Part shown: positions 1,456-59,281 of the stretch, one piece after another
Position numbering within the stretch: the first letter of the stretch is position 1
Layout: each line of letters begins with the position of its first letter
Assembly (NCBI GenBank): GCA_029258915.1
Contig: JAPDJU010000005.1
Location: 265,797-329,796, forward strand
Length of the DNA: 64,000 nucleotides
Direction of reading: 5' to 3'
DNA from: Thermoproteota archaeon
GTDB lineage: Archaea; Thermoproteota; Thermoprotei_A; EX4484-217-1
Position numbers and translations under genes: made by a program
Notes under the pieces: model-generated
What the model saw: only the letters and a program-made list of their open reading frames with translations
Databases searched by the model: none
Told to the model about the DNA's origin: nothing

Positions 1456-1457
1456 AT

Positions 1458-2867: not shown

Positions 2868-2870
2868 AAT

Positions 2871-3830: not shown

Positions 3831-3835
3831 GAGGC

Positions 3836-7502: not shown

Positions 7503-7664
7503 AAACATTAAGCCTAAACATTATTTTTCTAACAAAAACAAGTTCACACATAAAAAATTTTTAATCTCTTATAGTTCTATGTTAAATGTTCCTATAATGA
7601 TAAAGTTTATTAGATACCTCCTTTTCAACTACCATGAATAAATTTAGAACATTTACTCAGCGGG

Positions 7665-8717: not shown

Positions 8718-8728
8718 GGTGAAAGCAG

Positions 8729-13768: not shown

Positions 13769-13782
13769 GAGGGCTATTAGCT

Positions 13783-14931: not shown

Positions 14932-14943
14932 TGAAATATTTCT

Positions 14944-15402
14944 ATGAAAATTTCTGTTCCAAGGGTTTGGAGGGAACTCAAATCACATTACCTTCTTGAA
15001 GCATCAGTATGTACGAAATGCGGAAAAATACACTATCCTCCAAGAACGATATGTGATAATTGTAAAAACCATAAACTAATAAGGAGAAAACTTAGCGGTG
15101 AAGGAGAAGTACTAACATACACCGTTCAATATGTAGTTCTTGAAGGCTATAGAGAACACGCACCGATAATATTTGCTATAGTTAAGCTTAAAGAAGGAGT
15201 AAATGTTCTAGCTCCGCTAACCGATGTCAAACCTGAAAATGTTAGGGTAGGTTTGAAAGTTACGGCTGTTTTAAGAAAAATAACAGAAGATGGAGATTTA
15301 GGCCTTATAAAGTATGGTATTAAATTTAAACCCATGAAAGAATTTAGGAATGAGGGAAACGTGGCTTATGAAAGCGAAAAAAGAACTAGAAAAAATAGTT
15401 AA
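14944..15402 (+). CDS. DUF35 OB-fold/zinc-ribbon protein, the scaffold subunit of the archaeal thiolase-HMGCS complex.
   Basis: A CxxC...CxxC zinc ribbon ([20 protein letters not shown]) followed by an OB-fold-like region. Confidence 0.8.
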
Positions 15403-26484: not shown

Positions 26485-27618
26485 TTATGGTGTGTGCTTG
26501 GCTTCTTTAGCTTTCTTTTTCATAGCTTTTATCGCTTCAACTTCCTCTGTTAAACCATAAAATGAAGCTATAAACTTTAGAGCGTTTCTCTTCTTTCTCC
26601 TATCAAATTTTACTATTTTTGTCCATCTTTCTTCAGGTAATGGTTTATATTCTATATAGTCCTTTTCTACAGCAGTTTTCCATAGTTTTTCTCCTTTATC
26701 ATTCATTATTAATACAGCATTCCATCCTATTAGCCCAAGAGCGCCGACAGTTATGTCCGAATAGTAAGATAAGAACTCTGGACAGTGTCTGCATGCAGGT
26801 GTTAGGAATTTAGCAGCATCTTTTAATGAGTATTCCACGGTTTTACCGTCCTTTAGGTAGAAGTAGAATTTAGCTTTAATATTCTTTTTAACAACGTCTT
26901 CAGGCTTCACTCCTGCTGACTTCATCATTTCCATCATTTTACTCCATTGCCAATTTTCTGAGCACATAATGCTTACGGTGTATTCTATTTTGTTAACAAA
27001 TTTCCTTAAACCAATTTCTCTAGCTCTTTGGATAGCTCTTATTTGACATGGTAAGCCAACTGTAAGAACTCTACTAAGCTCGGGATGAGTGTAAGCAAGT
27101 GTTTCGAGCAGGTGATTTACCGGGCTATAAACGTATTTACTTCCAGCAGCTTTTATAACGTCTTCCTTGGTTTTGGCAATTATAGGTACAGGTCTCCAAA
27201 ATTCATCTCTAGCAACAAGAAATGCTGCATCTATAAGCTCCTCTTCTAAAGCTGCTATTATCAGTGTTGATGTTATTCCACCATCCTGGGATACCTTACC
27301 TAAAGCCTCTATTTTAGTTCTCGCCAAGTATTTTTCTTTAGGTACTGGCGGTTCAATAAATAACTCTTTCTTCATAGCTACATGAGGACACATCATTGAA
27401 CATAAGCTACAGTATACGCAGGCTTCCTCTGTTATTACTGGATGATCCGGTTCTTCGAAAATGTAGTTAACTGCTTTTGAAGGGCATACTGCAGTACATG
27501 AGCCGCAGTAAGAGCATAAATCAGCATTTATTATTTCAAATACGTTTACTGGAATTACCTGGCTGAAAGGGCCTCGATATGTGTAGAATCTTATCTTAGG
27601 TGTTGTCATGTATAACAC
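26485..27618 (-). CDS. FrhB/FdhB/FpoF-family subunit of an F420-dependent oxidoreductase. It has an N-terminal 2x[4Fe-4S] ferredoxin domain.
   Basis: Two CxxCxxCxxxCP clusters (CSYCGSCTAVCP, CVYCSLCSMMCP) followed by an FrhB-like FAD/F420-binding region. Confidence 0.75.
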   Translation of the reverse strand: MLYMTTPKIRFYTYRGPFSQVIPVNVFEIINADLCSYCGSCTAVCPSKAVNYIFEEPDHPVITEEACVYCSLCSMMCPHVAMKKELFIEPPVPKEKYLARTKIEALGKVSQDGGITSTLIIAALEEELIDAAFLVARDEFWRPVPIIAKTKEDVIKAAGSKYVYSPVNHLLETLAYTHPELSRVLTVGLPCQIRAIQRAREIGLRKFVNKIEYTVSIMCSENWQWSKMMEMMKSAGVKPEDVVKKNIKAKFYFYLKDGKTVEYSLKDAAKFLTPACRHCPEFLSYYSDITVGALGLIGWNAVLIMNDKGEKLWKTAVEKDYIEYKPLPEERWTKIVKFDRRKKRNALKFIASFYGLTEEVEAIKAMKKKAKEAKHTP

Positions 27619-28569: not shown

Positions 28570-31500
28570 TTATTTCTCACAAAGATTTTTAAGGATAAAG
28601 GTTCCCGTAGGGTATGTTACACCAGATTTCTTAGCTCTAACTATGATACTACATGTTTCTCTGTAAAATTCATTTAAAACTTTCGTTATATCTTCTTTAC
28701 CTAGTTCTACTTGATCTATTACTTCTTGCAATTTTCTAGTTCTTTCCTCACTTATTAGTTCACTAAAGTTTTCAATTAGGTATTTAAATACCCGTTTTCC
28801 TCTCTTTGTTGCCACCAGTTTTCCTCTACTTACTTCAACTATGTATCCTCTTTTTCTAAGAATATTTAGTATTTTAGCGTATGTTGATGGTCTACCTATT
28901 TTTCTTGCTTTCATCTCCTCTACGACTTCACCATAGGTATATAGTGGATATTCAGGTATTGTTCTTACATGTATTTCTTCTATCTCATATTCTCCACTAC
29001 CTATTTTTCTTGCTTCTTCCAAAACCAGTGGTTTCGTTAGTTTAAAGAATCCCTGTTCCACTATTTCCGTTGTGAACGTAAATTCCTTTGTAAAATCTTC
29101 GAATCTTAAAGTAAAAGTTTTCTTTATGACCTTAGCTGGCATCATTTGGCTTATTATAAATCTTCTAAATACTATGTCATATAACCTGTAATCTTCAGGT
29201 CTCAAGGGAACAGCTAATCTAAGAATACCTGCTGCTCTCAAAGACCTAATTTGCCTTGAATCAAGAGGTCTTGTTGGTCTTATACATTCATGTGCCCCCG
29301 GTTTTTCCCATTTTCTAGCTTTAAAATATTTTTCTCCGTACACTCTTATAATGTAGTCTTTGGCTAAACCTATACCTAAAGTACTAACGGTTGTACTGTC
29401 TGTTCTATGATATGTTATTAATCCTGCTTCGAAGAGTCTTTGAGCAGAATTCATAATTTTAGGTGCTGATAGGCCTAAAATTCTGGAGCCTTCAGCAAGC
29501 ATCGTATCGGTAGTGTGTGGTGGCGGCGGGTTAACTTCTACTATTTCTTCTCTAACATTTTCTACTATTATTTTCCCATGTTCACGTATTTTTTCAGCTA
29601 AACCTTTTGGAGCTTTAAATGTTAATTTTAGGTTTATGTCTTTAAGCTTAATAGTTATGAGTTCTGCCTTTTTCCTGTTTTTCAACGTTCTATCGACAAT
29701 CCATCCTAGTACTGGTGTTTGCACTCTTCCAGCTGAAAGCCAATGCATGTTAAATTCTTTCCATAATATAGGGCTTAGGCTAAACCCTATCCATCTATCT
29801 TCAATTCTCCTAACAATTTGAGCTTTAACCATGTTATGGTCTATTGATGATAGACTTTTTAGCGCTTCAATTAATCCTCTCCTTGTCACTTCATGGAATC
29901 TTATGCGCCAAATGTTTCTATTGAGCGGTTTTAAAAGTAGTATTACATCCCACGCTATTTTTTCTCCTTCACTATCAGGATCGGTGCCTACAAGGATTTC
30001 ATCTACTTGAGAAGCAAGCTGCCTTAAAGCCTTAATTACAGGTTTGCTCTCAACTAAAACTTTACCTCCACAATATGGGCATGCGGTTTCTTCTTCAGGA
30101 ACATCTCTTCCACATCTTATACATCTTTTAATAGGTTTGTAAATAGGTTGAAAAACACCGTTTGTAACATTTACTCCGAAAAGTCCTTTGTCACTTACAA
30201 GGTCTAAGATGTGGCCTCCTGTAGCTGTTATTATCATTAATCTGTCTTCAGTCATTACCTCAAATGTTTGAAGGGTTCCAATGGTTTTCCTTGTGGGTCT
30301 TCCAAAAAGCCTAGCTATGGTTCTGGCCTTATTAGGTGACTCTACAATAAAGAGTGTTGTCTTCATTAGTTCTCTTTCTTTAGTTTTAAGCTTTCCTTCT
30401 AAGGCTAGTCTAACTTTTCTTCTATCTTCATCTACTTCCTTCATTAGCTTATCTATATTTACTTCATCGTAATGTTTGAATTCCACGGTTTCAAGAAGCC
30501 ATTTAAGATTTCTTATAAGCGCGTTAAACGCTTTTATTTCATCAATAACTAATACGCTTACTCCTTTAGTTATACCGCCAACATATAATCTGCTTGTTCT
30601 ACCGCTTGCTTGTATGTAAGCTGTGGCATCAGGTATTATGAAGAAGTATTCTCCGGCTTTTTCTCCAAACGTTATTGTTCGGCTTCTTCTAAGTCTTTCT
30701 TTAACCTCTTCGTCTTTTAACACCTCGTTAAGGAAGTTAAGCGCGTCTTCGGCAACCTTTCTTACAAATTCAGGAAAACCGGTGAGTGATCTCCCTGTTT
30801 TCAAAGCTTCTCTTACGGCTTCTAATGTATCTCTAGTTGCTAATCTTACCTTTATTAGACCTCCTAAGACTCTATCAAATTCGTAAGGATATTTTTCGTA
30901 AATAGCGTCTCTAATTTCATTAAGCAGAATTAACCATCTACTTGGATGAAATTCTTCAAAGCTTATTCTAAGCCTAAATTTAGGTACTCCTGTAAAAACA
31001 GCATATCTTACCCTTTCAGGTAAATCTATTCCTCTAGTAAGTGGGCTACGGTACGAAGCTATACCTACTAAAACATCAACATCCCCTGCAATAAATTTCT
31101 CGAAAAGTCTTCTTCTTGTCCCAAGATATGCTTCAGCATTAATACCGTTTTTCTTCAATGTATCTGTTATTTTCTTTACATACTCTGCTCCTTTATCCAT
31201 AGGTACGAAAACTAGACCGCCTGTACCTAGTTTCTTAACAACATTAACTATTGTTTTCTCGAAAAGCTCCTTTGGGGGCTTAATATACATGTCGACTATA
31301 TTTCTCCCTACTTCAATTTTGCCTCCAACAGTGAAGCCGAAGAGTGCATTAAGTATCTTTACTCTTTTTGTTCTTCTAGCTGTTTGTGTTGCTCCACTGA
31401 CTATTACTTGACCTTTAACTTTAAGTCTGACACTAGTTTTTAACTTAGCTGCTTCACTTATTAGTTGTCTTGCTCTTTCAGGGTCTTCTCTTGCAAGCTT

Positions 31501-32082
31501 CCTAGCTTCACTTTCCATTTTCTGAGCTTTCTCTATGAGAGCTATTTCTTCTGGAGTAACGTTTAACATTTTAAGTACTATGTCAACGCTCTTACTTTTT
31601 CTGAGAAAACTGTCAACATCGTCTATAAAGGCGATGTTTATTGGTTGCTGTAGCTCCGTTCTCTTCATTAAGCTTATAGGTGTTGTAACAATTATCGAAG
31701 CATCAACAGTGTTTTCTAGTTCTAAACGTTTTTGCTTATTAGTAAGTAAGCTATGATACGCTGAAACAAGAACTCCGTCGAATCCAAGTTTGGATCTTAG
31801 CTCTAAAAGTTTTTGATGAACCTGATGCGCTAAAAGGCTTGTCGGAAGCATTATAAGCGTTCTTTTACCCTTACTGGCAGCATATAAGCTTAAAATCATT
31901 TGCATTGTTGTTTTACCGCTACCTGTAGGTGCCACCATGGCAAAGCTTTCTTTATTAAGAAATCTTCTAGCCCATAGTCTCTGCAATCCCCACATTTTAG
32001 AACCTACAGCTCTAACAAACAATTCATCTATTTTCTTAACTTCTCTCTCTATTTCCCATATCCTATTTAGTTCACCATACAT
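28570..32082 (-). CDS. rgy: Reverse gyrase (helicase-like domain fused to a topoisomerase IA domain). The annotated ATG lies downstream of the N-terminal zinc finger; see the finding at 32083-32235.
   Basis: Helicase motif I (AMVAPTGSGKTT), then DEAD-like motifs, then the topoisomerase IA domain with a CxxC...CxxC ribbon (CIRCGRDV..CPYCGG) and catalytic Tyr region. The length (1170 aa) fits. Confidence 0.95.
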   Translation of the reverse strand: MYGELNRIWEIEREVKKIDELFVRAVGSKMWGLQRLWARRFLNKESFAMVAPTGSGKTTMQMILSLYAASKGKRTLIMLPTSLLAHQVHQKLLELRSKLGFDGVLVSAYHSLLTNKQKRLELENTVDASIIVTTPISLMKRTELQQPINIAFIDDVDSFLRKSKSVDIVLKMLNVTPEEIALIEKAQKMESEARKLAREDPERARQLISEAAKLKTSVRLKVKGQVIVSGATQTARRTKRVKILNALFGFTVGGKIEVGRNIVDMYIKPPKELFEKTIVNVVKKLGTGGLVFVPMDKGAEYVKKITDTLKKNGINAEAYLGTRRRLFEKFIAGDVDVLVGIASYRSPLTRGIDLPERVRYAVFTGVPKFRLRISFEEFHPSRWLILLNEIRDAIYEKYPYEFDRVLGGLIKVRLATRDTLEAVREALKTGRSLTGFPEFVRKVAEDALNFLNEVLKDEEVKERLRRSRTITFGEKAGEYFFIIPDATAYIQASGRTSRLYVGGITKGVSVLVIDEIKAFNALIRNLKWLLETVEFKHYDEVNIDKLMKEVDEDRRKVRLALEGKLKTKERELMKTTLFIVESPNKARTIARLFGRPTRKTIGTLQTFEVMTEDRLMIITATGGHILDLVSDKGLFGVNVTNGVFQPIYKPIKRCIRCGRDVPEEETACPYCGGKVLVESKPVIKALRQLASQVDEILVGTDPDSEGEKIAWDVILLLKPLNRNIWRIRFHEVTRRGLIEALKSLSSIDHNMVKAQIVRRIEDRWIGFSLSPILWKEFNMHWLSAGRVQTPVLGWIVDRTLKNRKKAELITIKLKDINLKLTFKAPKGLAEKIREHGKIIVENVREEIVEVNPPPPHTTDTMLAEGSRILGLSAPKIMNSAQRLFEAGLITYHRTDSTTVSTLGIGLAKDYIIRVYGEKYFKARKWEKPGAHECIRPTRPLDSRQIRSLRAAGILRLAVPLRPEDYRLYDIVFRRFIISQMMPAKVIKKTFTLRFEDFTKEFTFTTEIVEQGFFKLTKPLVLEEARKIGSGEYEIEEIHVRTIPEYPLYTYGEVVEEMKARKIGRPSTYAKILNILRKRGYIVEVSRGKLVATKRGKRVFKYLIENFSELISEERTRKLQEVIDQVELGKEDITKVLNEFYRETCSIIVRAKKSGVTYPTGTFILKNLCEK

Positions 32083-35247: not shown

Positions 35248-36189
35248 ATGATTACGCTGTTAAGTGGAGGTACAGGCACACCTAAGCTTATTGAAGGCTT
35301 AAGACATGTAGTTAAGGATGAAGAATTAACGGTAATTGTAAATACTGCAGATGATGTATGGTGGAACGGACTATACATTTCACCAGACGTAGATACTGTA
35401 TTGTACCTGTTTGCAAACATCCTTGACACAGATAAGTACTGGGGAATACGTGGCGATACCTTTCATGCGTTAAATCAATTGTCAAAGTATGGTGCAGAAT
35501 GGACATGGTTTAGCGTAGGAGATAGAGACCTAGCAACACATATAATTAGAACATATCTTTTAAAGAAGGGATATAAACTACATGAGGTTGTAAAATATCT
35601 CTCAGAGAAAATGCATGTTAAAGCCACAATACTTCCTATGAGTAATGATAGAGTAGAAACCATGGTTAAAACAAATAAGGGCTCTATGAATATTCAAGAA
35701 TACTTGGTAAGGTTTAAAGCAGAACCAGAAGTTTATGAAATAAAGTTTCCGGGGTTGGAAAAAGCAAAACCCGCACCTGGGGTCATTGAAGCTATAGAAA
35801 GAGCAGACATGCTAATTATAGGTCCAAGTAACCCTGTAAACAGCATAGGCCCTATAATTAGCTTAAAAAGGGTCAAGGAGAAACTGACAAGGTTAAAAGC
35901 ACCTATAATAGCTGTTTCACCTATAATCTCAGGGAAGCCTGTTTCTGGTCCAGCAGACAAGTTTATGAGAGCTTTAGGCTACGAACCATCACCTATAGGT
36001 ATCGTGGAAATATATAAGGAGTTCTTAGATGGTATAGTTATAGATGTCGTTGATAGAAGCTTGGCCAAGGTAATAATGGACAAGTATAGGGTTAAAGTTA
36101 AAGTAGCAAACACCATAATGGTAACTCTCAAAGATAAAGTTAAATTAGCAGAAGAAGTTTTAGATTTTGCAAAAAGAATGAAGCAATAG
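35248..36189 (+). CDS. cofD: 2-phospho-L-lactate transferase (CofD).
   Basis: The N-terminal LLSGGTGTPKL motif is characteristic of CofD/UPF0052. Confidence 0.85.
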   Translation: MITLLSGGTGTPKLIEGLRHVVKDEELTVIVNTADDVWWNGLYISPDVDTVLYLFANILDTDKYWGIRGDTFHALNQLSKYGAEWTWFSVGDRDLATHIIRTYLLKKGYKLHEVVKYLSEKMHVKATILPMSNDRVETMVKTNKGSMNIQEYLVRFKAEPEVYEIKFPGLEKAKPAPGVIEAIERADMLIIGPSNPVNSIGPIISLKRVKEKLTRLKAPIIAVSPIISGKPVSGPADKFMRALGYEPSPIGIVEIYKEFLDGIVIDVVDRSLAKVIMDKYRVKVKVANTIMVTLKDKVKLAEEVLDFAKRMKQ

Positions 36190-36192
36190 CCG

Positions 36193-36858
36193 TTGAGCTG
36201 TAAAAACATGGAAATTACAGCAATAGTTCCCATTAAAGAATTCAGTAAAGCCAAAAGCAGGCTAGCAAAAATATTACCTCTAAATGTTAGAATAGAATTA
36301 AGTAAAGCTATGCTTAAAGACGTCATTTTAGCCTTAGCTTCCAACTGCGAAATAAAGAACATTGTTATAATAACACCTAATAAGGATGTAGACGATGTAG
36401 TTACCATTTCTAAAAAGGTTAGAATACTTCATGATGAAGGCATAGGGCAAGTGTTTGCTTTAAAAAAAGCATTAAATTACACCTTAGAAATGTATAACCC
36501 GGATGCTATTCTCATTGCTGTAGCTGACTTACCTTCCATAAGACCTCAGGATGTAAGTAAAATGATACATTTAATACAAACATATCATTCAATAGTTTTA
36601 GCACCATCTACTGATGGCGGAACAAACGTTATGATACAATATCCTCCAGCAATAATAGATTTAAAATACGGGCCTATGAGCTTCAAAAAACACGTAGAAG
36701 AAGCCTATAGAAAGAAGGTATTCTTACAAATATATTTCTCTGAAACAACATCCATAGATCTAGATACGCTCGATGATTTAAAGCAAGTAATGAAAATACA
36801 CGTATCGTACAATACAAGAGAGATCCTAAGAAAAATCAAAGAGGTTTACACTATATGA
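36193..36858 (+). CDS. cofC: 2-phospho-L-lactate (or PEP) guanylyltransferase (CofC).
   Basis: MobA-like fold with the CofC N-terminus (AIVPIKEFSKAKSRL). Starts 3 nt after cofD. Confidence 0.8.
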   Translation: MSCKNMEITAIVPIKEFSKAKSRLAKILPLNVRIELSKAMLKDVILALASNCEIKNIVIITPNKDVDDVVTISKKVRILHDEGIGQVFALKKALNYTLEMYNPDAILIAVADLPSIRPQDVSKMIHLIQTYHSIVLAPSTDGGTNVMIQYPPAIIDLKYGPMSFKKHVEEAYRKKVFLQIYFSETTSIDLDTLDDLKQVMKIHVSYNTREILRKIKEVYTI

Positions 36859-37904
36859 ATGCTAATTCAGAGTTTATTGAAGGCGATTTCGTAGAAGATA
36901 TTAACAACATAATATTTGATGTCAAGGGCTTGGAGCATCCACCAACTAGAGTTATTGCTTTTCCACGATATATACCGGATGAGAAAGGCGATAGAATTAG
37001 AAAGGTAGACAATAGAAAGTATGCTAAAATTTATGATTTAAACTTAAGATATACATACATGAAGAAATTTCTCAGAAAATACCTAGTTTATAACGAAGTT
37101 TTTGACATGGAGTTATGTGAAATACCTAAAACCGATATAATCAGACATTATAAACCAGCTAATAAATTAAAAGAACTAATAAGTAATATAGAATTTCTTG
37201 ATGAAACACAGCAAAGTGCATTAAAATTAGCTTTAATACTATCATACAAATCCGGTGTACCGTTAAAAAATTTAGGAATAAGCGGATCTATAATGGTAGA
37301 TTTACATAAAGATAATAGTGATATAGATATTGTAGTTTATGGAACAAAAGAATCTTTTAAAGTTATTGAGGCTCTTAGAGAGTTTTTCAATGAAGGAATA
37401 TTGAGAAAATATAGTATGGATGAATATGAAAGGCTATACGTTTTTAGAAAAGCCTATGAGGTCTTAGATTTTAAAGCTTTCATTAAGCATGAGAAAAGGA
37501 AACTTTTTCAAGGAATGTTTAAAGATAGAGAATTCTTCATAAGGTTTATTGAGAATTTATCTGAGAAGAAACCATACGGCTATTATAGATACAAGAATTT
37601 AGGTAAAATCACAGTCAAAGCAAGAGTCATTGATGACGCGCATTCTATATTTACACCTGTAAGATACGTAATAGACAATGTTAAAATAATTGAAGCAGAA
37701 ACGAAGCATTCAATAAAACCTGAAAATATCACTGAAATTGTTTCCTTTAGAGGTAGATTTTGTCAGCAAGTGTTTAAAGGTGAGAACATTATTGCTAAGG
37801 GTAAAATTGAAGCCGTCTTAGAAAATAATTACTTAACCCATTATAGAATAATCGTAGGGGGTTCACCTAAAGATTACTTAGTTAATGAGGAGTTTGTAAA
37901 GTGA
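36855..37904 (+). CDS. Paralog A of an uncharacterised family. Domain order: unknown N-terminal domain of about 130 aa, then a Pol-beta-superfamily nucleotidyltransferase core (GISGSIMVDLHKDNSDIDIVV), then an unknown C-terminal domain.
   Basis: GS-x9-DxD nucleotidyltransferase signature. It overlaps cofC by 4 nt and paralog B by 4 nt. Confidence 0.6.
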   Translation: MNANSEFIEGDFVEDINNIIFDVKGLEHPPTRVIAFPRYIPDEKGDRIRKVDNRKYAKIYDLNLRYTYMKKFLRKYLVYNEVFDMELCEIPKTDIIRHYKPANKLKELISNIEFLDETQQSALKLALILSYKSGVPLKNLGISGSIMVDLHKDNSDIDIVVYGTKESFKVIEALREFFNEGILRKYSMDEYERLYVFRKAYEVLDFKAFIKHEKRKLFQGMFKDREFFIRFIENLSEKKPYGYYRYKNLGKITVKARVIDDAHSIFTPVRYVIDNVKIIEAETKHSIKPENITEIVSFRGRFCQQVFKGENIIAKGKIEAVLENNYLTHYRIIVGGSPKDYLVNEEFVK

Positions 37905-38974
37905 GAAAATTTAAGCTATTCAAGGATAGAGACTTTATTGAGGACAAAGACGGATACATGTTCTGTGTAGTAGGATACGTTCACCCACCAGATCGTGTTC
38001 TAGCATATCTAAAATATGTACCATCAAGAAAGAAGACAATATGGTATCGTGAAAGCGTAGGATTTAGAAGGATCTTAAAGTATTATAGTAGTGTAGCAGT
38101 TTTAGATTCTATGCGGCTTCTCAGCAAAACCAAACCTAATTACATATACTATGACAACTGCTTCAATATAAAGTTCATAGGTGTACCAAAGAGTGAAATT
38201 AGAAAACACTATATTCCTGAAGGGAAATTGAAAGAAATAATTGATAAACCAAGCAGAGACCCTCTCGAACAAGACCTTGTAGAATTAGTTAATTATTTAT
38301 CAGAAATATCTGACATAAACTTAAAATACTTTGGAATTTCAGGCTCCATCCTTCTGAATATTCATAACCCTAAATACTCAGACATAGACTTAATGGTTTA
38401 CGGTAGGGATAACTCATTTAAGCTGCTAGGCATAATAGATCAGGCTGTAAACGAGGGTATGATTTCTTTACCAGGTAAGCGTATGTTAGAGACATGGTCT
38501 TATGAAGTTTCGAAACATCATCCACTTACACCTAAAGAAGCTATGAGGCTATATGTTGAAAGAAAAACAAGGTTAATATTTAAAGGTAAAAGAGTTTTTT
38601 CATTACATCCAGCAAGACTTGACAATGAAATATTAGAAAATTATGGAGACAAAATATACGTACCCGTATGTTTAGCAAAAATTAAAGGTACTGTTAAAGA
38701 TGCTTCAGATTCTCTATTTTTACCAGCAACATACATCGTAGATGACGTTGAAATTATTGAAGGGAGTTTTGAAGGAGAAATATATGAAGTAACAACATTT
38801 GAAGGATTATACTCTGCTTTACTTAAAGAATGTGAGGAATTTATTGCATATGGAAAAGTAGAAAAGGCGATTGAGACGAGAACAGGTAAAACATATTATA
38901 GGCTTGTAGTAGGCTCTGCGGAAGCTAAAGGAAAAGACTATATAAAACCTATAAGATGGCTTAAAGGAGGTTGA
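37901..38974 (+). CDS. Paralog B of the same nucleotidyltransferase-fold family (GISGSILLNIHNPKYSDIDLMVYG).
   Basis: Same domain order as paralog A and a conserved N-terminal motif (HPP.RV.A...Y.P). GTG start overlapping the stop of A; its own stop overlaps the cofE start. Confidence 0.6.
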   Translation: MRKFKLFKDRDFIEDKDGYMFCVVGYVHPPDRVLAYLKYVPSRKKTIWYRESVGFRRILKYYSSVAVLDSMRLLSKTKPNYIYYDNCFNIKFIGVPKSEIRKHYIPEGKLKEIIDKPSRDPLEQDLVELVNYLSEISDINLKYFGISGSILLNIHNPKYSDIDLMVYGRDNSFKLLGIIDQAVNEGMISLPGKRMLETWSYEVSKHHPLTPKEAMRLYVERKTRLIFKGKRVFSLHPARLDNEILENYGDKIYVPVCLAKIKGTVKDASDSLFLPATYIVDDVEIIEGSFEGEIYEVTTFEGLYSALLKECEEFIAYGKVEKAIETRTGKTYYRLVVGSAEAKGKDYIKPIRWLKGG

Positions 38975-39747
38975 TTTGTTTGGCTAAGAAAATAGAGTTC
39001 ATAGGCTTAGAAACAATACCTGAAATTAAAAAAGGCGATGACATAGGTAAGTTAATAGTTGAAGCATGCGAAAAAGAGAATGTAAACATAGAGAATGGAG
39101 ACATAATTATTATAACACATAAGATAGTATCTAAAGCTGAAGGTAGAATAGTTAATTTACATAAAATAGTTCCTTCGAAGAAAGCCATAGAGATAGCAGA
39201 ATATACAGGCAAAGATCCTAAACTTGTAGAATTAATCTTGAGAGAATCGGAAGAAATAGTTAAACTAACTAGTGAAGGACATATAATTGTAAGAACAAGG
39301 CACGGAATAATATGTGCTAACGCTGGAATCGATGCTTCAAACATTGCTGGAACAGAAGACATTGTAGCACTGATTCCCGAGGACCCTGATAGCTCAGCTA
39401 AAAAAATAAGGGAAAGAATAATGGAGCTTACAGGAAAAGATGTAGCTATAATAATTACGGACACTTATGGTAGACCGTTAAGAGAAGGTATGATAAACAT
39501 GGCTATAGGTCTTTCTGGAATAAAGCCGTTTAGAGACTATAGAGGAAAACCTGACCTTTATGGTTATCAATTTAGAGTAACAATAATTGCTGTGGCAGAC
39601 GAATTAGCTTCGGCTGCGGAGCTTCTTATGGGTCAGGGGAAAGAGAAAATACCTGTAGTAATTGTTAAAGGATATAGGTTTGAAAGAAGCGAATTATCAT
39701 CGGCTAGAGAACTTAATATGCCTGAGGAAAAGTGGTTGTTTAAATGA
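38971..39747 (+). CDS. cofE: Coenzyme F420-0:L-glutamate ligase (CofE).
   Basis: CofE pattern (GDIIIITHKIVSKAEGR..). TTG start preceded by GGAGG. Confidence 0.85.
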   Translation: MICLAKKIEFIGLETIPEIKKGDDIGKLIVEACEKENVNIENGDIIIITHKIVSKAEGRIVNLHKIVPSKKAIEIAEYTGKDPKLVELILRESEEIVKLTSEGHIIVRTRHGIICANAGIDASNIAGTEDIVALIPEDPDSSAKKIRERIMELTGKDVAIIITDTYGRPLREGMINMAIGLSGIKPFRDYRGKPDLYGYQFRVTIIAVADELASAAELLMGQGKEKIPVVIVKGYRFERSELSSARELNMPEEKWLFK

Positions 39748-39846: not shown

Positions 39847-40902
39847 GTGAATCGGTTGACAGGACGTCGTAGAAGAGAATTCGGCGAAATCAGAAAAATA
39901 CAGGTAACCGGTGGTTCAACGTTCATTGTTTCTCTACCTAAGCATTGGGTAACGAACGCTGGACTTCATCCAGGAGATTCTATAGTAGTTTATGCGCAAA
40001 ACGATAACACTTTATTACTAATGCCATTGAAAGAAGCTTCTAAGAGGAAAGAGGTTACACTCAGCATTAAAAGCAAGGAATGGTCCATCAACAGGGCTGT
40101 AAGAATGCTTGTAGCATCATACATTGCCGGAGGCGACATAATCAAACTTGTTGTTAAAGAAGGAACAGCACCTATAGAAGACAAGAAGATTCTTAGAGAT
40201 TTCATAAGAAGATATCTTGTTGGAGCAGAAGTTGTTGAAGATATACCGGAAGGCCTTGTAATACAAGTTATAGCCAATGTTGAAGAACTTAAAATAATAA
40301 ATATCCTGCAAAGAATGCATAAACTAGTCTGGAGTATGATTAAAGACACTATAAGCGCTTTTCTTAACCTAGACAAAGACCTTGCAAGAGATGTAATAAT
40401 GAGAGACGATGAAATAGATAGATTCTACTTTCTCTTCATAAGACAGCTAAACCTGTCACTTCAAGATAGAAGAATAATGATTGATGTCGGTTTAGAAGAA
40501 CCTGCTGATGCAATAAACTTAGCCATGATAGCTAGAAATGTTGAAAGAGTTGCAGATCATACGGCGTATATATCGGATAAAATAATAAAACTAACTAAGA
40601 AACCTTATGACCCACTTAAATTAAAAATCGAAGAACTAACCAAGGCTGTAATAGAAGTTTTTAATGAAGCTATGAATGCTCTGTATAGTATGAATGATAA
40701 TATGGCTTTAAGGGCAATAGAACGAGCAATGAAATATATGAAATTAGAAGAGGAAATAGAAAAAATAGTTTCTTCAGTAAGCACTGTTGATGTTGATATG
40801 CCCTTCTTAAGACTAATAATTGAACGTTTGCAAGGAATGCTTGTAGACGCTGAGGATATAGCTGAACATACCATGGATATGATAGCTATTAGAAAAAGAT
40901 AG
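39847..40902 (+). CDS. PhoU-family phosphate-uptake regulator with an N-terminal AbrB/SpoVT/MazE-type DNA-binding domain.
   Basis: N-terminal QVTGGSTFIVSLPKHWV (AbrB swapped hairpin), followed by two PhoU-like helical repeats. Confidence 0.75.
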   Translation: MNRLTGRRRREFGEIRKIQVTGGSTFIVSLPKHWVTNAGLHPGDSIVVYAQNDNTLLLMPLKEASKRKEVTLSIKSKEWSINRAVRMLVASYIAGGDIIKLVVKEGTAPIEDKKILRDFIRRYLVGAEVVEDIPEGLVIQVIANVEELKIINILQRMHKLVWSMIKDTISAFLNLDKDLARDVIMRDDEIDRFYFLFIRQLNLSLQDRRIMIDVGLEEPADAINLAMIARNVERVADHTAYISDKIIKLTKKPYDPLKLKIEELTKAVIEVFNEAMNALYSMNDNMALRAIERAMKYMKLEEEIEKIVSSVSTVDVDMPFLRLIIERLQGMLVDAEDIAEHTMDMIAIRKR

Positions 40903-44030: not shown

Positions 44031-44687
44031 ATGAGGGAAGTTTTCATGAGGAAACCTATTAGGCTAGGTATTCCGGTTTTAGACGAATATGTAGGTAGTT
44101 TAAAACCTGGAACAACAATACTTATCGAAGGTCTACCAGAAACTTATCCCTACCTATTACTTCACAGAATAGGGTATCAAGTTTCTAGAGCAGGAGTAAA
44201 AGTAACGTACATAATTTGGGGAGATAATGCAGAAGATTATAGAGAGGCAGCAATTAATGTAGGACTAGATGTACCAACTCTTGAAAGAGAACATCTATGG
44301 AAATATTTTTCGATAATGTCTTTAGATGAGTTATGGAATATTATGTTAAAGGAAGCAGCTAAATCGTTGATCCTAATAGATGCCACATCAATATCCTTGG
44401 AAATACCTCTAAAGGAAGCCATGGAATTAAGGAACATGGCTAAAAAGTGGGGTACAATCACAGTTATATCTATAACACCTCCTGTAATAGGAGAGAAAAC
44501 GCTTCTCTTACTGGAGAAACTGTTTGATATAATATTAGAATTACAAGTGAAGATAATTAGAGATGAAGTAAGGTATCTAATGAATATTAAGAAACACAAG
44601 AAAATGCCTAAAAAAGGTCTTATAATAACCTACTCTATAGGGGCACAAGGGATTAAGGTGGAACAATTAAGAAAAATACCGTACTAA
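44031..44687 (+). CDS. KaiC/RecA-fold FlaH-like protein with a degenerate Walker A.
   Basis: GIPVLDEYVGSLKPGTTILIEGLPETYPY aligns to the KaiC/FlaH pattern G..LD..LGGG.P.G...LI.G.PGTGKT, with the P-loop residues replaced. Confidence 0.55.
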   Translation: MREVFMRKPIRLGIPVLDEYVGSLKPGTTILIEGLPETYPYLLLHRIGYQVSRAGVKVTYIIWGDNAEDYREAAINVGLDVPTLEREHLWKYFSIMSLDELWNIMLKEAAKSLILIDATSISLEIPLKEAMELRNMAKKWGTITVISITPPVIGEKTLLLLEKLFDIILELQVKIIRDEVRYLMNIKKHKKMPKKGLIITYSIGAQGIKVEQLRKIPY

Positions 44688-44806
44688 AACGCAACAAAGC
44701 ATCTGAATAAGAAGTCAAGGAGCATGTATGACAGCAAAATACACTTAAAGCGAACAATCTTAAATATACTTAGAATACTAGAATAAGAATATTTTAGGGA
44801 AACTGA

Positions 44807-46405
44807 ATGGATATTTTAGAGAAAATAAGAAGGAAACTAAACAATAATGTAAATCCTGGTTTGGCGAAGGGAAAAGTTGCAGCAAAAACTGTAGCCATCA
44901 AAGCAAAAAAGGAACTGCCTAAAAAAAGAACCTTGGTTAAAAATATATATGCTGTAAATCCGCCATACGCTTATGTAATGATATATATTGATGAAAAAGG
45001 TATCTTACGATACAATGTATTAGAACCCTATCTTGTACCCGAAGAGAAAATATACTATAAAGAGATGAAGGAGCTAATACTTGAAGAAGCAAAGATACCT
45101 ATTGCAGCATTAAGAGATTATAGAATGGCCTCAGAGGTTCTCTCTAAAACAATAGATGAAATAGTAAGGAGGTATAGAATAAGACTTCAAAAGGAATCTA
45201 TAGACAAAATTAAGTATTATATAGTGAGAGACCTTGTAGGTTACGGTAAAATAGATCCTATGTATAGAGATCCTTATGTTGAAGATATAGTTTGTGATGG
45301 CCATAATATACATGTTTATGTTTACCATAGAGACTTTGAGTGGATGCCAACAAATGTAATTTTTGAAAGCCCTGATGAGCTTGAAAGCTTTATTAGGAAA
45401 TTAGCTTTTAGAGCAGGTCAAAGCATTACCTATGCCAGGCCTATAGTTGAAGGACCATTACCTCCTGAAGGTTTTAGAGTGCATTTAACATTAAAAGAGG
45501 TATCTCGTAGAGGAAGCACTTTTACCATTAGAAAATATAGCATAGAGCCTTACACTGTAATTAATCTGTTAAAGTTTAATACATTAAGTACAGACACCGC
45601 TGCCTACCTATGGTTATTAATAGATAACGTAATGAGCTTCATGGTTCTCGGCCCCATGGCCTCCGGTAAAACAACATTACTTAACGCTGTAGCTATGATG
45701 ATTAGGCCTGAAGCAAAAATAGTTACCATAGAGGAAACGCCCGAACTAAGGCTCCCTCATGAAAATTGGGTTCCCATGACTGTAAGGCCTAGTTTCGAAC
45801 CTGGAGTTGAAGATATAACACTTTTTGAGCTTTTAAAGAGCGCATTAAGGCAAAGACCTGAATACATTATTGTAGGTGAAATTAGAGGTAAAGAAGCATA
45901 TACGTTTTTCCAAGCAATGGCAGTAGGGCATGGAGGATTAACGACTATACATGGTGAAAGCGTTCAAGCAGTAATTTCAAGGTTAGAGAACGAGCCCATG
46001 AATATACCTAGAGTTTTAATACCTTTAGTTAAAGCATTCGTGCATATGGGTAGGGTTAAAGTTAGAGGAGAAATTATGAGAAGAGTATTAAGAGTTGTTG
46101 AAACAGTAGGCATAGACACAGCTACAAAGGAAGTTATATTAAACGAAGTTTACGTATGGGACCCCGTAACAGATACATGGAAATTCTCTGGGAGAAGCTA
46201 CGCTTTCGAATACATAGCTACAAACAGAGGTTTACCTTTAAGTGAAATATATAAAGACTTTGAAAGAAGGAGAATAGTGTTAGAATGGATGAAACAGAAG
46301 AACATGGTTAAATTCTCCGAAGTAGCCGATATACTGAGAAAATACTATCAAGACCCTGAAGAAACCTATAGACATGCAGAATCCGAATTAAGGAGGATAG
46401 CGTAA
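44807..46405 (+). CDS. FlaI/TadA/VirB11-family secretion ATPase of a type-IV-filament system.
   Basis: Walker A (GPMASGKTT), Asp box, Walker B (IIVGEIRG), His box (TIHGES). Confidence 0.85.
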   Translation: MDILEKIRRKLNNNVNPGLAKGKVAAKTVAIKAKKELPKKRTLVKNIYAVNPPYAYVMIYIDEKGILRYNVLEPYLVPEEKIYYKEMKELILEEAKIPIAALRDYRMASEVLSKTIDEIVRRYRIRLQKESIDKIKYYIVRDLVGYGKIDPMYRDPYVEDIVCDGHNIHVYVYHRDFEWMPTNVIFESPDELESFIRKLAFRAGQSITYARPIVEGPLPPEGFRVHLTLKEVSRRGSTFTIRKYSIEPYTVINLLKFNTLSTDTAAYLWLLIDNVMSFMVLGPMASGKTTLLNAVAMMIRPEAKIVTIEETPELRLPHENWVPMTVRPSFEPGVEDITLFELLKSALRQRPEYIIVGEIRGKEAYTFFQAMAVGHGGLTTIHGESVQAVISRLENEPMNIPRVLIPLVKAFVHMGRVKVRGEIMRRVLRVVETVGIDTATKEVILNEVYVWDPVTDTWKFSGRSYAFEYIATNRGLPLSEIYKDFERRRIVLEWMKQKNMVKFSEVADILRKYYQDPEETYRHAESELRRIA

Positions 46406-46406
46406 G

Positions 46407-47291
46407 TTGGGCATTTCGCATGTAGCATACAGAATGTTTAAAGGAAAAGGAATATACAATTTCCTCTTAAAAACCTTAAGCTGGTTAGACCCATACTTAA
46501 TGTACTCAGGTTTTAACATACCTTTACGTAGATATGTAGCTACTTTAATTTTAATTACACTAATCACTTTCTCTGCATCATTACCATTAACTTACATTTT
46601 GCATACCTTATTCTTTGAAACAAGTGTAGTATTTAATTTAGCAGCCTCAATCATACTCTCCTTAATGGTATCAGCTATAATTCTAAGTCTTTTTGTATAC
46701 ATACCTGTTTTTAAAGCTAAAAGTAGACTTGAACTCTTAGAAACAAGGCTTCCCTACATAGTTTCATACATGACCATCTTATCCTATGCAGGAAGAAATG
46801 TAGAGTCCATAATTGCTAAACTTACTGAAAAAGGGAAACTATTTGGTATAGAAGAACCAGCTACAAGAATGCTTAGAAAAATTTTTATCTTAGGCCAAGA
46901 TACGGCTAAAATGCTTATGGATGAGGCTAGAAAAAACCCTTCAATAGTTTATTCATCCCTCTTAGAAAGCTTAGCTGGAATTGTTGAAACAGGTAAGGGG
47001 TTAAGTGAATTTTTAGAATCCGAGTTTATGAATTTGCTAAGAAGTAGAGAAGCAAAAATTAAGGAAGCCATGAATTCTATGACAGTTTTGATGGAAATAT
47101 TCATCAGTCTAGTTATTGTCTTACCATTAGTCTTAACAATAATGTTATCTATTATGGCGTCTTTAGGAACTGTTGCATTACCTATAGATCCACTTTTACT
47201 TTTATTTCTAATGTATTTCATAATAGCTCCATCGATAGCTACAATGATAGTTTTAATGATAGATTCCTTAATATCAAAGATTTCGGGATAG
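46407..47291 (+). CDS. Half-size FlaJ/TadB-like (T2SS-F fold) polytopic membrane protein.
   Basis: Three or four transmembrane segments with a cytoplasmic helical domain. Immediately downstream of the ATPase gene. Confidence 0.55.
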   Translation: MGISHVAYRMFKGKGIYNFLLKTLSWLDPYLMYSGFNIPLRRYVATLILITLITFSASLPLTYILHTLFFETSVVFNLAASIILSLMVSAIILSLFVYIPVFKAKSRLELLETRLPYIVSYMTILSYAGRNVESIIAKLTEKGKLFGIEEPATRMLRKIFILGQDTAKMLMDEARKNPSIVYSSLLESLAGIVETGKGLSEFLESEFMNLLRSREAKIKEAMNSMTVLMEIFISLVIVLPLVLTIMLSIMASLGTVALPIDPLLLLFLMYFIIAPSIATMIVLMIDSLISKISG

Positions 47292-47294
47292 CAT

Positions 47295-48221
47295 ATGAGC
47301 AAGCACTTAGTAGTAAAAGTTATGAATAGAAATATCTTAACCTTGATACTGTCTGTCTTCTTAGCTACGCTCTTCTTAGTAATAAGTCTTGTAGTTTTAA
47401 AAATGGCTGATTTCACTAAAGCACTCATAATAGCTGGGCCTATACCTACATTGTTACCTTATGATATTAATTTCATAAACTTAATGGTTGCATTTGCAAT
47501 TATCTTACTTACTCCTTATCCTCTAATTAAATACTTGGAGCATAGGAGGAAGCGAAAAGTCGAATTACTAATGCCTGTTTTTCTTTACGATCTCGCAGGA
47601 CTCGTTAGAGCCGGTTATACTGTACCTAAAGCTCTTGAAATGGAAGCCGAAAAAGACCTGGGACCTTTAACAGACCTTATAAGAAAAGCAGTTACTAGAA
47701 TAACCTTAGGCGAAAGTGTTTCTAAGGCTCTAAACAAAGCATTTAAGGACCAAACCTTAATAACCAGAAGATTTATTGAAACAATAGCTGAGGCTCATGA
47801 AAGCGGAGGAAGAGCAGCCCAAGTACTTTCGGGAGCATCATCGCATGCAGCTAGGCTTGAGGCATTTGAGGAAGAAAAGAGAAGAAGTATGAAAGTTTAT
47901 GTTTCTATAATATACGTTTCAATAATAGTATTCATGGTTTCGGCTGCCTTTCTTCTATTCTTTAATACAGCACTTTATGGAACTATGAAGGAAGGCGGAG
48001 GAATATTCACCATGTTGCTTACGCCAGAGCAGTTGAGAGGGTTATTGTATTACGCTACATTACTTATATCTGCTCCTTCATGCTTTGTTATAGGTAAAAT
48101 AAGGTCAGGGACCATAGTGGAAGGCGCATTACATTTAGTTTTTATTTACATAGCGATAGCTATTTTCTATAATAGCATAGATGGCATAATTTCTATGCTT
48201 TTATCTCTTTTCTCTCTTTAA
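47295..48221 (+). CDS. Second half-size FlaJ/TadC-like membrane protein.
   Basis: Topology similar to the preceding gene. Together the pair equals one archaeal FlaJ. Confidence 0.55.
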   Translation: MSKHLVVKVMNRNILTLILSVFLATLFLVISLVVLKMADFTKALIIAGPIPTLLPYDINFINLMVAFAIILLTPYPLIKYLEHRRKRKVELLMPVFLYDLAGLVRAGYTVPKALEMEAEKDLGPLTDLIRKAVTRITLGESVSKALNKAFKDQTLITRRFIETIAEAHESGGRAAQVLSGASSHAARLEAFEEEKRRSMKVYVSIIYVSIIVFMVSAAFLLFFNTALYGTMKEGGGIFTMLLTPEQLRGLLYYATLLISAPSCFVIGKIRSGTIVEGALHLVFIYIAIAIFYNSIDGIISMLLSLFSL

Positions 48222-49203
48222 ACTTTTTAACAAGTGTGAGAATTTGATTAAGTATTTCAGTTATGGATTTACCGGAAACGAGATTAACACCTTGACTTGA
48301 GGCTACCTTTCTTATGCTCTCCGAGGAACTGTCAGTTACATAAATGTATTTAATATCTGGGAAATCCATGAACTTAGCTATATGAGCAAGAAGGTCCGTT
48401 ATTTGAAGTTCAGCTGATGCTATTGGTCTATAATCTACCCCTATTAACGATTGGTCTGCTTTAACCACAATGTCGAACCTATGATTTACGCCTGAAATAC
48501 CTTTTAAGGTAGCGTTCTTCTCTACTTGAAAACCTTTAGATGAAAGTGATAGAAGTATTAAATTTCTAATTAAAATACCTGATTTTAGCAGTTTAACGCC
48601 ATAATCCGTTGTTCTATACATGTAAACTGCTTTATACTTTGCTGTCAATATATTAAATTCCTTACCGCATTCCCTACATATGAAATGTATTTTTGGTCTA
48701 TCTGCTCTTCTACCACAGTCTATACATTCAAATATTTCACCTAAAACTCTATAGTCAACACCTTCTTCACGAAGGCTCACTTTACAGTTCGGACATATAA
48801 GCTGTTCTTCAGACTCCTTCTTAGGCTGGCGAAGAAATTTCAACTTAGTATCTACGAAACCACAGGTTACATGCTGTATTATTTCTGTCTTAATCATGTT
48901 TATTGAACCGCATGAAGGGCATTTAAACCTAGTACCTACATGGATTTTACCGCAATAAGGACATTCAATGACTCTCTCGGCTATTTTTTCCTCAACAAGC
49001 CCTAATTCTATGAGTTTCCTTATTTTCTCTTGCCACTCAGGAAACATTTTCATTTTAGGATATTCTATACCATGCTCTAACCTAATCTGAGGCGCAATTT
49101 CTCTTTCCTCAACCATTATTTCTAAAATTTTAAGTAGCGTGGGATCCCTAAGTAACGTTTCAGCAAGTACTAACTCCCTATTTTTCTCCAACACTGTGCT
49201 CAA
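48193..49203 (-). CDS. Multi-zinc-ribbon protein with an N-terminal wHTH-like region and a C-terminal restriction-endonuclease-like (Mrr_cat-like) domain.
   Basis: Four CxxC pairs (CPYCG/CPSCG/CPNC/CIDCG/CREC) and a C-terminal ..GFQVEKNATLKGISGVNHRFDIVVKAD.. region. Confidence 0.45.
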   Translation of the reverse strand: MSTVLEKNRELVLAETLLRDPTLLKILEIMVEEREIAPQIRLEHGIEYPKMKMFPEWQEKIRKLIELGLVEEKIAERVIECPYCGKIHVGTRFKCPSCGSINMIKTEIIQHVTCGFVDTKLKFLRQPKKESEEQLICPNCKVSLREEGVDYRVLGEIFECIDCGRRADRPKIHFICRECGKEFNILTAKYKAVYMYRTTDYGVKLLKSGILIRNLILLSLSSKGFQVEKNATLKGISGVNHRFDIVVKADQSLIGVDYRPIASAELQITDLLAHIAKFMDFPDIKYIYVTDSSSESIRKVASSQGVNLVSGKSITEILNQILTLVKKFKERKEIKA

Positions 49204-59215: not shown

Positions 59216-59281
59216 TATTATAAATAAACCAACTCTCTATATTTAACTCTGCTTCGTTAGTTTAAACTCGGAGGGAAAAGT

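Follow-up and report, generated by a model that had tools for sequence, protein, structure and literature searches.

Background

Bathyarchaeia, Asgard archaea, and Thermoproteota, three groups of central importance for the carbon cycle and for ideas on how eukaryotes arose, use tetrahydromethanopterin (H4MPT) to carry one-carbon (C1) units in the archaeal Wood-Ljungdahl pathway; we know of no cofactor structures from these groups. In the side chain of methanopterin an alpha-ribosyl-5-phosphate is joined by a phosphodiester to 2-hydroxyglutarate. To our knowledge, several late steps of H4MPT synthesis have had no genes assigned to them since the pathway was outlined biochemically in the 1990s; among them are ribofuranosyl reduction and the steps that attach ribose 5-phosphate and hydroxyglutarate. 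Among described enzymes, canonical CitG transfers 5-triphospho-alpha-D-ribose from ATP onto a hydroxyl with loss of adenine, and CitX/MdcG transfers the phosphoribosyl adduct onto a serine hydroxyl with loss of pyrophosphate (PPi). In the palm of the polymerase beta (Pol-beta) superfamily a hydroxyl is aimed at the alpha-phosphate of a ribose-5'-triphosphate and PPi is released. Here we analyse a window of 64,000 nucleotides from a Thermoproteota archaeon (assembly GCA_029258915.1, contig JAPDJU010000005.1, positions 265,797 to 329,796 of the forward strand), in which two paralogous genes, named X and Y, lie between cofC and cofE in an operon for coenzyme F420:

36855-37904, + strand: X, X-type member of an uncharacterised archaeal three-domain nucleotidyltransferase (NTase) family, 349 aa
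37901-38974, + strand: Y, Y-type paralog of X in the same family, 357 aa, 31% identical to X along the full length (E=4e-41)

On balance, we favour the reading that X and Y belong to an NTase family, so far uncharacterised, that helps to make or salvage C1 cofactors of the archaeal Wood-Ljungdahl or methanogenic type, most likely a methanopterin-type pterin and not F420. That the family takes part in C1-cofactor biosynthesis is highly probable, and for action in the pterin/H4MPT branch specifically the evidence is evenly poised. The target pterin is most likely H4MPT or a lineage-specific 'modified folate'. The association of X and Y with methanopterin-type cofactor genes appears to be unreported so far.

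Gene neighbourhoods of X and Y homologs

Neighbourhoods were compared in 80 loci anchored on X-type genes, with one genome per GTDB species, plus metagenome loci, and 82 non-redundant loci were counted. This set was found with X-type sequences only and is dominated by Bathyarchaeia, whose loci are not mutually independent. Neighbouring open reading frames (ORFs) were clustered and representatives annotated, and linkage to cof genes was sought by tblastn with the CofD, CofC, and CofE of the window. At least one pterin- or C1-linked neighbour is present in 70 of the 82 loci, and links to methanopterin and C1 genes recur in about ten phylogenetically separate archaeal contexts. Genes for FwdABCD, Ftr, Mch, and Mer, which are C1 enzymes of H4MPT and methanofuran, are nearby in 43 loci. 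A FolT-like membrane protein (multi-pass, about 240 aa) is encoded in the neighbourhood at 44 loci, at 39 of them immediately 5' of X, and its carriers are Bathyarchaeia, Thermofilaceae, Hod- and Promethearchaeota, and Baldrarchaeota. The profile of this protein matched FolT, the folate S component of energy-coupling factor transporters (4z7f), with E=7e-6, and there were weaker matches to other FolT structures and to RibU. A CitG-like gene (PF01874, 5.7e-70) is nearby in 50 loci.

The arrangement of these genes differs from lineage to lineage. In Jordarchaeia, one strand encodes MptG (NF040726, 399.5 vs 328 bits), DUF1464, DmrX (TIGR02700, 300 vs 251 bits), MptH, which is DHPS-like (TIGR00284, 375 vs 257 bits), MptA (PF02649, 2e-65), X, and Y. 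The order in the bathyarchaeal locus L035 is DUF1464, DmrX-like, MptE-like, DUF447, CitG, X, Y, and in Thermofilaceae Mer (NF002619, 448 bits vs 276) is followed by the FolT-like protein and X. FTR comes directly after X-Y in Baldrarchaeota and in one complete Bathyarchaeota genome, and in Methanofastidiosia X ends the cdhA-B-C-cooC-cdhD-E operon for carbon monoxide dehydrogenase/acetyl-CoA synthase with a gap of 2 nt. The Y-type gene of Vulcanisaeta is clustered with DUF1464, MptA, MptE-like, FTR, FwdB/D, FwdA, FwdC, and Mch, and the same cluster also holds a RimK-type ligase, an ATP-grasp_3 ligase, MfnB, AA_kinase, Hydantoinase_A, Fae, and SHMT. A Y-type supercluster in L093, from a Thermoprotei/Geothermarchaeota lineage, has Mtd-like, HisA/F-like, cofE, MfnB, AA_kinase, and Hydantoinase_A genes together with MptE-like, MptD (DHNA), DUF447, MptG-like, and DUF1464. 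Finally, P0304 joins HPPK (PF01288, 3e-40) and an intact X-type module in one natural protein, and 3' of its gene lie genes for a flavoprotein and then for a DUF6513/Pterin_bind/DUF4346 DHPS-like protein; this fusion is one cluster among the 150 representatives listed. The family thus clusters with Mpt and Dmr genes in several lineages and is fused in one case to a pathway enzyme, HPPK. Three of these findings speak for pterins in particular: the HPPK fusion, the FolT-like partner, and the MptG-DmrX-MptH-MptA-X-Y operon.

In Methanomethylicia (L062) and several Bathyarchaeia (L025, L035, L060, L075) the CitG-like gene is the same-strand neighbour directly 5' of X, and in the cultured Vulcanisaeta it overlaps the Y-type gene by 14 nt. 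Examples are found at 6189-7139 in L036, 6966-7970 in L062, and 11076-12062 in L091, and a CitG-like protein is also present in a classical methanogen.

Other kinds of genes were seen in the same neighbourhoods. The bathyarchaeal loci also carry the plainly unrelated CdvABC genes. In Jordarchaeia (L054, 12889-14040, - strand) a TiaS TCKD domain fused to a TrmB-type helix-turn-helix domain is encoded between the X-Y pair and the CitG-like gene. In Theionarchaea (L090, 6768-8966) a gene of the F420_oxidored family and genes for two AsnC-type ligand-binding proteins of 80-85 aa are followed by an X-type gene that overlaps the second of these.

Size and spread of the family

Word-indexed searches returned at least 1,689 homologs of X and at least 337 of Y. 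With a cut-off of E<=1e-3 an exhaustive profile search of 1.84 billion representatives gave 1,702 clusters, and with E<=1e-30 it gave 617; the size of the family comes to about 600-1,250 clusters at 50% identity. Bathyarchaeia are by far the most numerous carriers. Other named carriers are Thermoprotei (among them the cultured Vulcanisaeta sp. JCM 14467), Desulfurococcales-like metagenome-assembled genomes, Thermofilaceae, Methanomethylicia, Geothermarchaeota, Nitrososphaerota, and Baldrarchaeia. The Asgard carriers are Jord-, Hod-, Hel-, Thor-, Loki-, Prometh-, Atabey-, and Wukong-archaea, and the euryarchaeal ones are Methanofastidiosia and Theionarchaea. In their sources these proteins are annotated only as 'hypothetical protein' or 'predicted nucleotidyltransferase', and Y is 43% identical to WP_054850186.1 of Vulcanisaeta.

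In many genomes an X-type gene has no paralog within 8 kb, the Y-type gene is solitary in Vulcanisaeta and in L093, and three or four paralog classes are present in many Bathyarchaeia. This gene content, with solitary X-type and solitary Y-type genes, rules out an obligate X-Y heterodimer as a property of the whole family; in the lineage of the window the pair may form one.

Sequence motifs and predicted structure

The earlier note, which was made from the sequence of this locus alone, had described X and Y as paralogs of about 350 aa that share an N-terminal motif and a Pol-beta-type NTase signature and that fit no characterised family. This description is borne out. Both motifs are present in both proteins, and the spacer of the NTase signature is x9 in X and x10 in Y. 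The elements of the two proteins are as follows:

36933-36977, + strand: motif of the N-terminal domain of X, EHPPTRVIAFPRYIP, residues 27-41; H28 and P29 are invariant in alignments A1 and A2
37275-37343, + strand: Pol-beta NTase signature of X, GISGS-x9-SDIDIVVYG, residues 141-163; invariant in 102 sequences and kept in four paralog classes
37584-37886, + strand: predicted C-terminal all-beta domain of X with an oligonucleotide/oligosaccharide-binding (OB) fold, residues about 244-344
38333-38404, + strand: Pol-beta NTase signature of Y, GISGS-x10-SDIDLMVYG, residues 145-168

The N-terminal motif of Y is VHPPDRVLAYLKYVP. Across the alignment of 102 sequences H28, P29, G141, G144, S145, S155, D156, D158, Y162, and G163 are invariant, and in Y the residues G145, G148, S149, S160, D161, D163, Y167, and G168 are invariant in alignment A4. 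The signature hG[GS]-x9-13-Dh[DE]h of the Pol-beta superfamily is present in X and in Y, and G144-S145 and D156-x-D158 of X are the predicted catalytic residues. E237 and E319 are 91-100% conserved in every paralog class, and either may be the third catalytic carboxylate expected of a Pol-beta palm. The arginines R198, R215, R299, R301, and R331 are specific to X. A pair made of one active and one inactive paralog was considered and is ruled out, because all four paralog classes retain the catalytic residues. Judged from these residues, X and Y both look catalytically competent.

Against profile libraries X and Y stay below every threshold. PF01909 gave 17.9 and 15.5 bits for X and Y at a gathering cut-off of 21, PF18765 (Polbeta) gave 15.6 bits vs a cut-off of 26.9, and the NCBIfam scan of X and Y returned no match; a precomputed PF01909 match is present on a few homologs. 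Searches of the PDB with single sequences and with a profile found no relative of either protein. Neither X nor Y matched the Pfam or NCBIfam models of the known F420 enzymes (CofC, CofD, CofE, CofF, the nitroreductase domain of FbiB, and F390 synthetase), and TiaS TCKD and FLD domains, a PAP-associated or central domain, a Pfam RNA-binding domain, and a HEPN domain were likewise not found in them.

AlphaFold2 models of X and Y were obtained with predicted local distance difference test scores (pLDDT) of 95.7 and 95.2, respectively, and a predicted template modelling score (pTM) of 0.91, and they show the same succession of secondary-structure elements. The order is an N-terminal beta/alpha domain with the HPP motif, a helical linker, a Pol-beta-type palm, a helical segment, and a C-terminal all-beta domain. 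The models thus predict a protein made of an N-terminal H-P-motif domain, a Pol-beta NTase palm, and a C-terminal OB fold. The modelled palm has the alpha-beta-alpha-beta-alpha-beta order and superposes on known Pol-beta members, the closest being GLD-2, CutA, Cid1, TUT4/7, and Pol X enzymes. The closest structures to the C-terminal domain are OB folds that bind single-stranded DNA (ssDNA) or RNA, namely, RPA, SSB, MCM-N, OB proteins of the editosome, and the anticodon-binding domains of aminoacyl-tRNA synthetases. Structure comparison of the models, which the earlier note had proposed, gave domain-level matches only (Z <=9.3, 6-20% identity), and the full-length three-part architecture has no counterpart among solved structures. 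The family, which has no characterised member, is a structurally new variant inside the known Pol-beta superfamily.

The cof operon in the window

X and Y are flanked by three genes whose products each score above the Pfam and NCBIfam equivalog cut-offs, and the next gene encodes a fusion protein:

35248-36189, + strand: cofD, 2-phospho-L-lactate transferase (PF01933, 1.2e-56; TIGR01819 equivalog, 359 bits, cut-off 257)
36193-36858, + strand: cofC, 2-phospho-L-lactate guanylyltransferase (PF01983, 8.9e-35; TIGR03552, 136.8 bits, cut-off 105); the likelier start is ATG 36208
38971-39747, + strand: cofE, F420-0:gamma-glutamyl ligase (PF01996, 4.3e-82; TIGR01916, 289 bits, cut-off 181); the likelier start is TTG 38980
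39847-40902, + strand: MazE/AbrB-type DNA-binding domain fused to two PhoU domains, directly 3' of cofE; it has the same position in relatives, with 77% identity

The single compact unit of cofD, cofC, X, Y, and cofE that the earlier note had described is confirmed and lies on the + strand, and of the junctions that it gave those on either side of X are firm: cofC/X is an ATGA overlap and X/Y a GTGA overlap, both unambiguous, and a GAGG-type motif stands about 10 nt 5' of each. The outer two junctions hinge on the choice of start codon. The spacing of cofD and cofC is 3 nt with TTG 36193 or 18 nt with ATG 36208, and Y and cofE overlap by 4 nt with TTG 38971 or are separated by 5 nt with TTG 38980. 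The 5-nt gap is more plausibly the correct one, because TTG 38980 is better spaced from a GGAGG and is used by the independent gene call on the identical contig L088.

The order cofD-cofC-X-Y-cofE is found only in the closest relatives (L001-L003, L005, and L006, and the identical L088) and persists among them at identities as low as about 50%. These relatives also share a gene for cysteinyl-tRNA synthetase (CysRS) upstream and a PhoU-like gene downstream, so that the whole region is syntenic. In L001, L005, and L006 the shared order runs through reverse gyrase, a metallo-beta-lactamase-fold protein, CysRS, cofDC-XY-E, and PhoU-like, adenosine-kinase-like, MgtC, and single-stranded DNA-binding protein genes. 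Because the flanking CysRS and PhoU genes are equally syntenic, the conserved order of the cof unit is not specific to a function.

Two genes near the unit are recorded here. The MazE/AbrB-PhoU fusion protein 3' of cofE is a possible regulator. About 9 kb upstream of the operon (26485-27618, - strand) lies a gene for an FrhB/FdhB-family protein (PF04432, 7.6e-35; PF04422, 6e-22) with N-terminal 4Fe-4S motifs; this is an F420-reactive iron-sulfur protein, in line with the use of F420 by the organism.

Alternative explanations

The earlier note had proposed that X and Y are an undescribed F420-pathway or F420-tailoring enzyme. In this reading X-Y would act between CofC/CofD and CofE, in the supply or modification of the phospholactyl group or in a nucleotidylation of F420 as in F390. 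The place of the pair between cofC and cofE, its ATGA and GTGA overlaps, and the gene order kept down to relatives of about 50% identity agree with it, and so do the FrhB/FdhB-family F420 protein encoded in the window, the cofE that lies 2.6 kb from the Y-type gene in L093, the F420_oxidored-family gene upstream of X in Theionarchaea, and the F420-dependent Mer that adjoins FolT-like and X. A further point is L043 (14479-16766, - strand), where a family member, a MobA-like NTP transferase (PF12804, 6.5e-28), and cofE stand in a row on one strand. This linkage outside the lineage of the window is suggestive, and the MobA-like protein may be standing in for CofC; as a second independent link to cof genes it is weak, since the ORF that overlaps cofE is MobA-like and not a clear CofC. 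When the neighbourhoods were compared, as the note had suggested, the pair was found to stay with cof genes in the lineage of the window, but the linkage does not recur across independent lineages: cof genes are nearby in only 4 of the 82 non-redundant loci, three of which belong to the one syntenic lineage that shares the CysRS and PhoU flanks, and the links that do recur are to methanopterin and C1 genes. In about ten other lineages no fusion or operon with cofC, D, E, G, or H was seen, whereas the pterin genes give a fusion and several operons, and the canonical chemistry of CofC, CofD, and CofE requires no Pol-beta-type NTase. The F420 linkage is real in the lineage of the window and is not a property of the family, and the F420-specific reading of X-Y is weakly supported; we consider it quite unlikely. 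In Thermoproteota superclusters (L093 and L091) the biosynthesis genes of H4MPT, methanofuran, and F420 stand side by side, and the cofD-cofC-X-Y-cofE unit of the window is most simply a local version of this mixed clustering of C1-cofactor genes. Mer and Mtd use F420 and H4MPT together as co-substrates, and for this reason co-clustering of cof genes with X and Y makes biological sense. The mixed clusters also raise the possibility that the family serves methanofuran biosynthesis, for example of its side chain, instead of a pterin. In Vulcanisaeta the Y-type gene, CitG, ATP-grasp_3, and MfnB (4-HFCP synthase) form a run with AA_kinase adjoining, in L093 MfnB, AA_kinase, and a HisA/F-like gene are near the Y-type gene, and bacteria require a HisA/F-like protein, Orf17, to make methylofuran (PMC8141765). 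In many Bathyarchaeia fwdABCD adjoins CitG, FolT-like, and X. However, there is no obvious place for NTase- or CitG-type chemistry in this pathway, because the methanofurans known to us contain no ribose, phosphate, or nucleotide. No need for such an enzyme is reported in the methylotrophic bacteria that synthesise methylofuran (PMC8141765), and the HPPK fusion, the FolT-like partner, and the Jordarchaeia operon point to pterins, so that a role in methanofuran synthesis is unlikely.

It is also conceivable that X and Y are nucleic-acid enzymes, either template-independent terminal NTases or modifiers of tRNA or other RNA, and that their cofactor context is incidental or regulatory. The palm is closest to those of GLD-2, CutA, Cid1, TUT4/7, and Pol X, the C-terminal domain is closest to OB folds that bind ssDNA or RNA, and Nop5 and fibrillarin are encoded downstream in two Asgard loci; the OB fold would then hold a single-stranded RNA or DNA end. 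We regard this reading, with the use of the OB fold that goes with it, as very unlikely: the structural matches are confined to domains at the low Z scores and identities given above, and neither a PAP-associated or central domain nor a Pfam RNA-binding domain is present. Moreover, 70 of the 82 loci have a pterin or C1 neighbour, the fusion partner HPPK is a small-molecule pterin enzyme, and Pol-beta NTases that act on hydroxyls of small molecules or proteins are well known (ANT, AadA, GlnE), with ANT(2'') and AadA among the weak Foldseek matches. Hardly credible at all is the insertion into the cof operon of an unrelated two-gene module, such as a minimal-NTase (MNT) toxin/antitoxin or defence pair. 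Paired and overlapping NTase genes do resemble some MNT-type modules, and PF01909 is the weak best Pfam match. Against it, there is no HEPN or other partner domain, proteins of about 350 aa carry two extra conserved domains, GC content at the X-Y pair is unremarkable within the window, and the family, which sits in stable metabolic operons, is distributed vertically over TACK, Asgard, and some Euryarchaeota. Nor does the fallback given in the earlier note, an unrelated system that hitch-hikes in the operon, agree with the wider context of X and Y, which is cofactor biosynthesis.

Several observations weigh against a role of the family in methanopterin-type pterin synthesis. Genes of the CitG-like, FolT-like, Mpt, Mfn, Fwd, Ftr, Mch, and Mer kinds were looked for in the 64-kb window and not found, and the only direct link of X-Y there is to cof genes. 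Among the named homologs (the best 120-150 matches per search) there were none from classical methanogens, Archaeoglobus, or Thermococcus. Since these organisms make canonical H4MPT and appear to lack the family, it does not seem to serve a universal step of H4MPT synthesis. The neighbourhoods mix genes for H4MPT, methanofuran, and F420, so that context alone does not single out the cofactor, and in Vulcanisaeta genes for methanofuran are equally near, the same-strand run after CitG being an ATP-grasp gene followed by MfnB, both of that pathway. An OB fold with a TENT/PolX-like palm is typical of nucleic-acid enzymes. Most of the loci are from Bathyarchaeia and depend on one another. The archaeal CitG-like proteins score 47-51 bits vs equivalog cut-offs of about 280 for CitG and MdcB, and they are a distinct subfamily. 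Homology of X and Y to CitX was considered and is ruled out, with an hhalign probability of 0.3% against E. coli CitX, and PF03802 (CitX) had no match to X or Y at E<=0.1.

A possible reaction for the family

Because the recurrent partner of X and Y, at times coupled to them in translation, is CitG-like, we propose that the donor for their palm could be a triphosphoribosyl intermediate made by the CitG-like protein. With a hydroxy-acid as the acceptor, the product would be a ribose-5-phosphate phosphodiester, for example the link between ribose-5-phosphate and 2-hydroxyglutarate in the side chain of methanopterin. The CitG-like protein and X/Y might carry out both side-chain steps, or lineage-specific variants of them, and the FolT-like protein, as an importer, could allow salvage of a precursor. 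A CitG-coupled phosphodiester step is a tentative proposal that is argued from analogy, and we hold it with more doubt than confidence. In the literature that we searched, no paper linked an NTase or CitG to methanopterin biosynthesis, and nothing relevant was found on CitG and methanofuran. Bacterial H4MPT islands were not used as support for CitG, and Orf21 of methylotrophs is a homolog of MfnE and not of CitG (PMC8141765).

The X/Y family is a concrete and testable candidate for an old gap in the H4MPT pathway; it is structurally novel, has an obligate-looking CitG-like partner and a fusion with a pterin kinase, and is present in a cultured host, Vulcanisaeta sp. JCM 14467. The F420 context of X-Y is lineage-specific, and this is a caution against assigning functions from a single operon.

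Other features of the window

Reverse gyrase is encoded at 28570-32082 (- strand; E=3e-207 to PDB 1GKU/1GL9) and the host is therefore a hyperthermophile. The stretches 373-11865 and 12704-16624 (both + strand) contain two sets of oligopeptide-type ABC transporter genes and, for the mevalonate pathway, a cluster of HMG-CoA synthase-like, thiolase, and HMG-CoA reductase genes, and the overall picture is that of a peptide-using heterotroph. At 57197-60940 (+ strand) a 2-oxoacid dehydrogenase has its E1 alpha and beta parts fused in one protein of 672 aa, followed by an E2 with a C-terminal carboxymuconolactone-decarboxylase (CMD) domain, which is an unusual fusion. The region 44031-49203 holds a KaiC-like ATPase, a T2SSE/T2SSF type-IV-pilus-like assembly set, and a convergent gene for a TackOD1 (PF18551) zinc-ribbon protein.

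Comparison with known systems

The nearest system by position is CofC and CofD (FbiD/FbiA), which are in the same operon as X and Y here and have a task that is similar in concept, since they make a phosphodiester between a 2-hydroxy-acid and a sugar or polyol by way of a nucleotide-type activation. CofC is a MobA-like NTP transferase of the GT-A type (PF01983/PF12804) and CofD has a fold of its own (PF01933), whereas X and Y match neither, and outside one lineage X and Y do not co-localise with cofC and cofD.

By fold, the nearest are NTases of the terminal nucleotidyltransferase (TENT) type, that is, GLD-2/TENT2, CutA, Cid1, TUT4/7, poly(A) polymerases, and the palms of Pol X, with which about 100-120 residues align at 11-20% identity. 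Unlike these, X and Y have no central or PAP-associated domain but an N-terminal HPP domain of their own and a C-terminal OB fold, and their context is that of cofactor genes and not of RNA metabolism. A precedent for a small-molecule substrate is given by ANT(2'')-Ia, AadA/ANT(3''), kanamycin NTase, and GlnE, whose Pol-beta palms move a nucleoside monophosphate to a hydroxyl that is not part of a nucleic acid. ANT(2'')-Ia and AadA are among the weak Foldseek matches of X and Y, with E of about 0.3, which is insignificant; X and Y differ from this group in their accessory domains and are not in a resistance-gene context.

The HPPK-X fusion in P0304 has its precedent in HPPK-DHPS and FolB-HPPK, since HPPK is a classical fusion partner of enzymes from its own pathway; it differs from these in that the protein joined to HPPK has an NTase fold and is of a kind for which no role in folate or methanopterin synthesis has ever been described. 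For the chemistry that we propose, the closest system is CitG with CitX (MdcB with MdcG). X and Y are twice as long as CitX and have the extra N-terminal and OB domains, and, unlike in CitG/CitX systems, no genes for an acyl-carrier protein, citrate lyase, or malonate decarboxylase are near them, the context of X and Y with the CitG-like gene being that of pterin and C1 cofactors. In both cases a CitG-family gene and a second transferase are encoded in one operon, and the reaction proposed for X and Y would be of the type carried out by CitX/MdcG, which would make the likeness a functional parallel and not one of ancestry.

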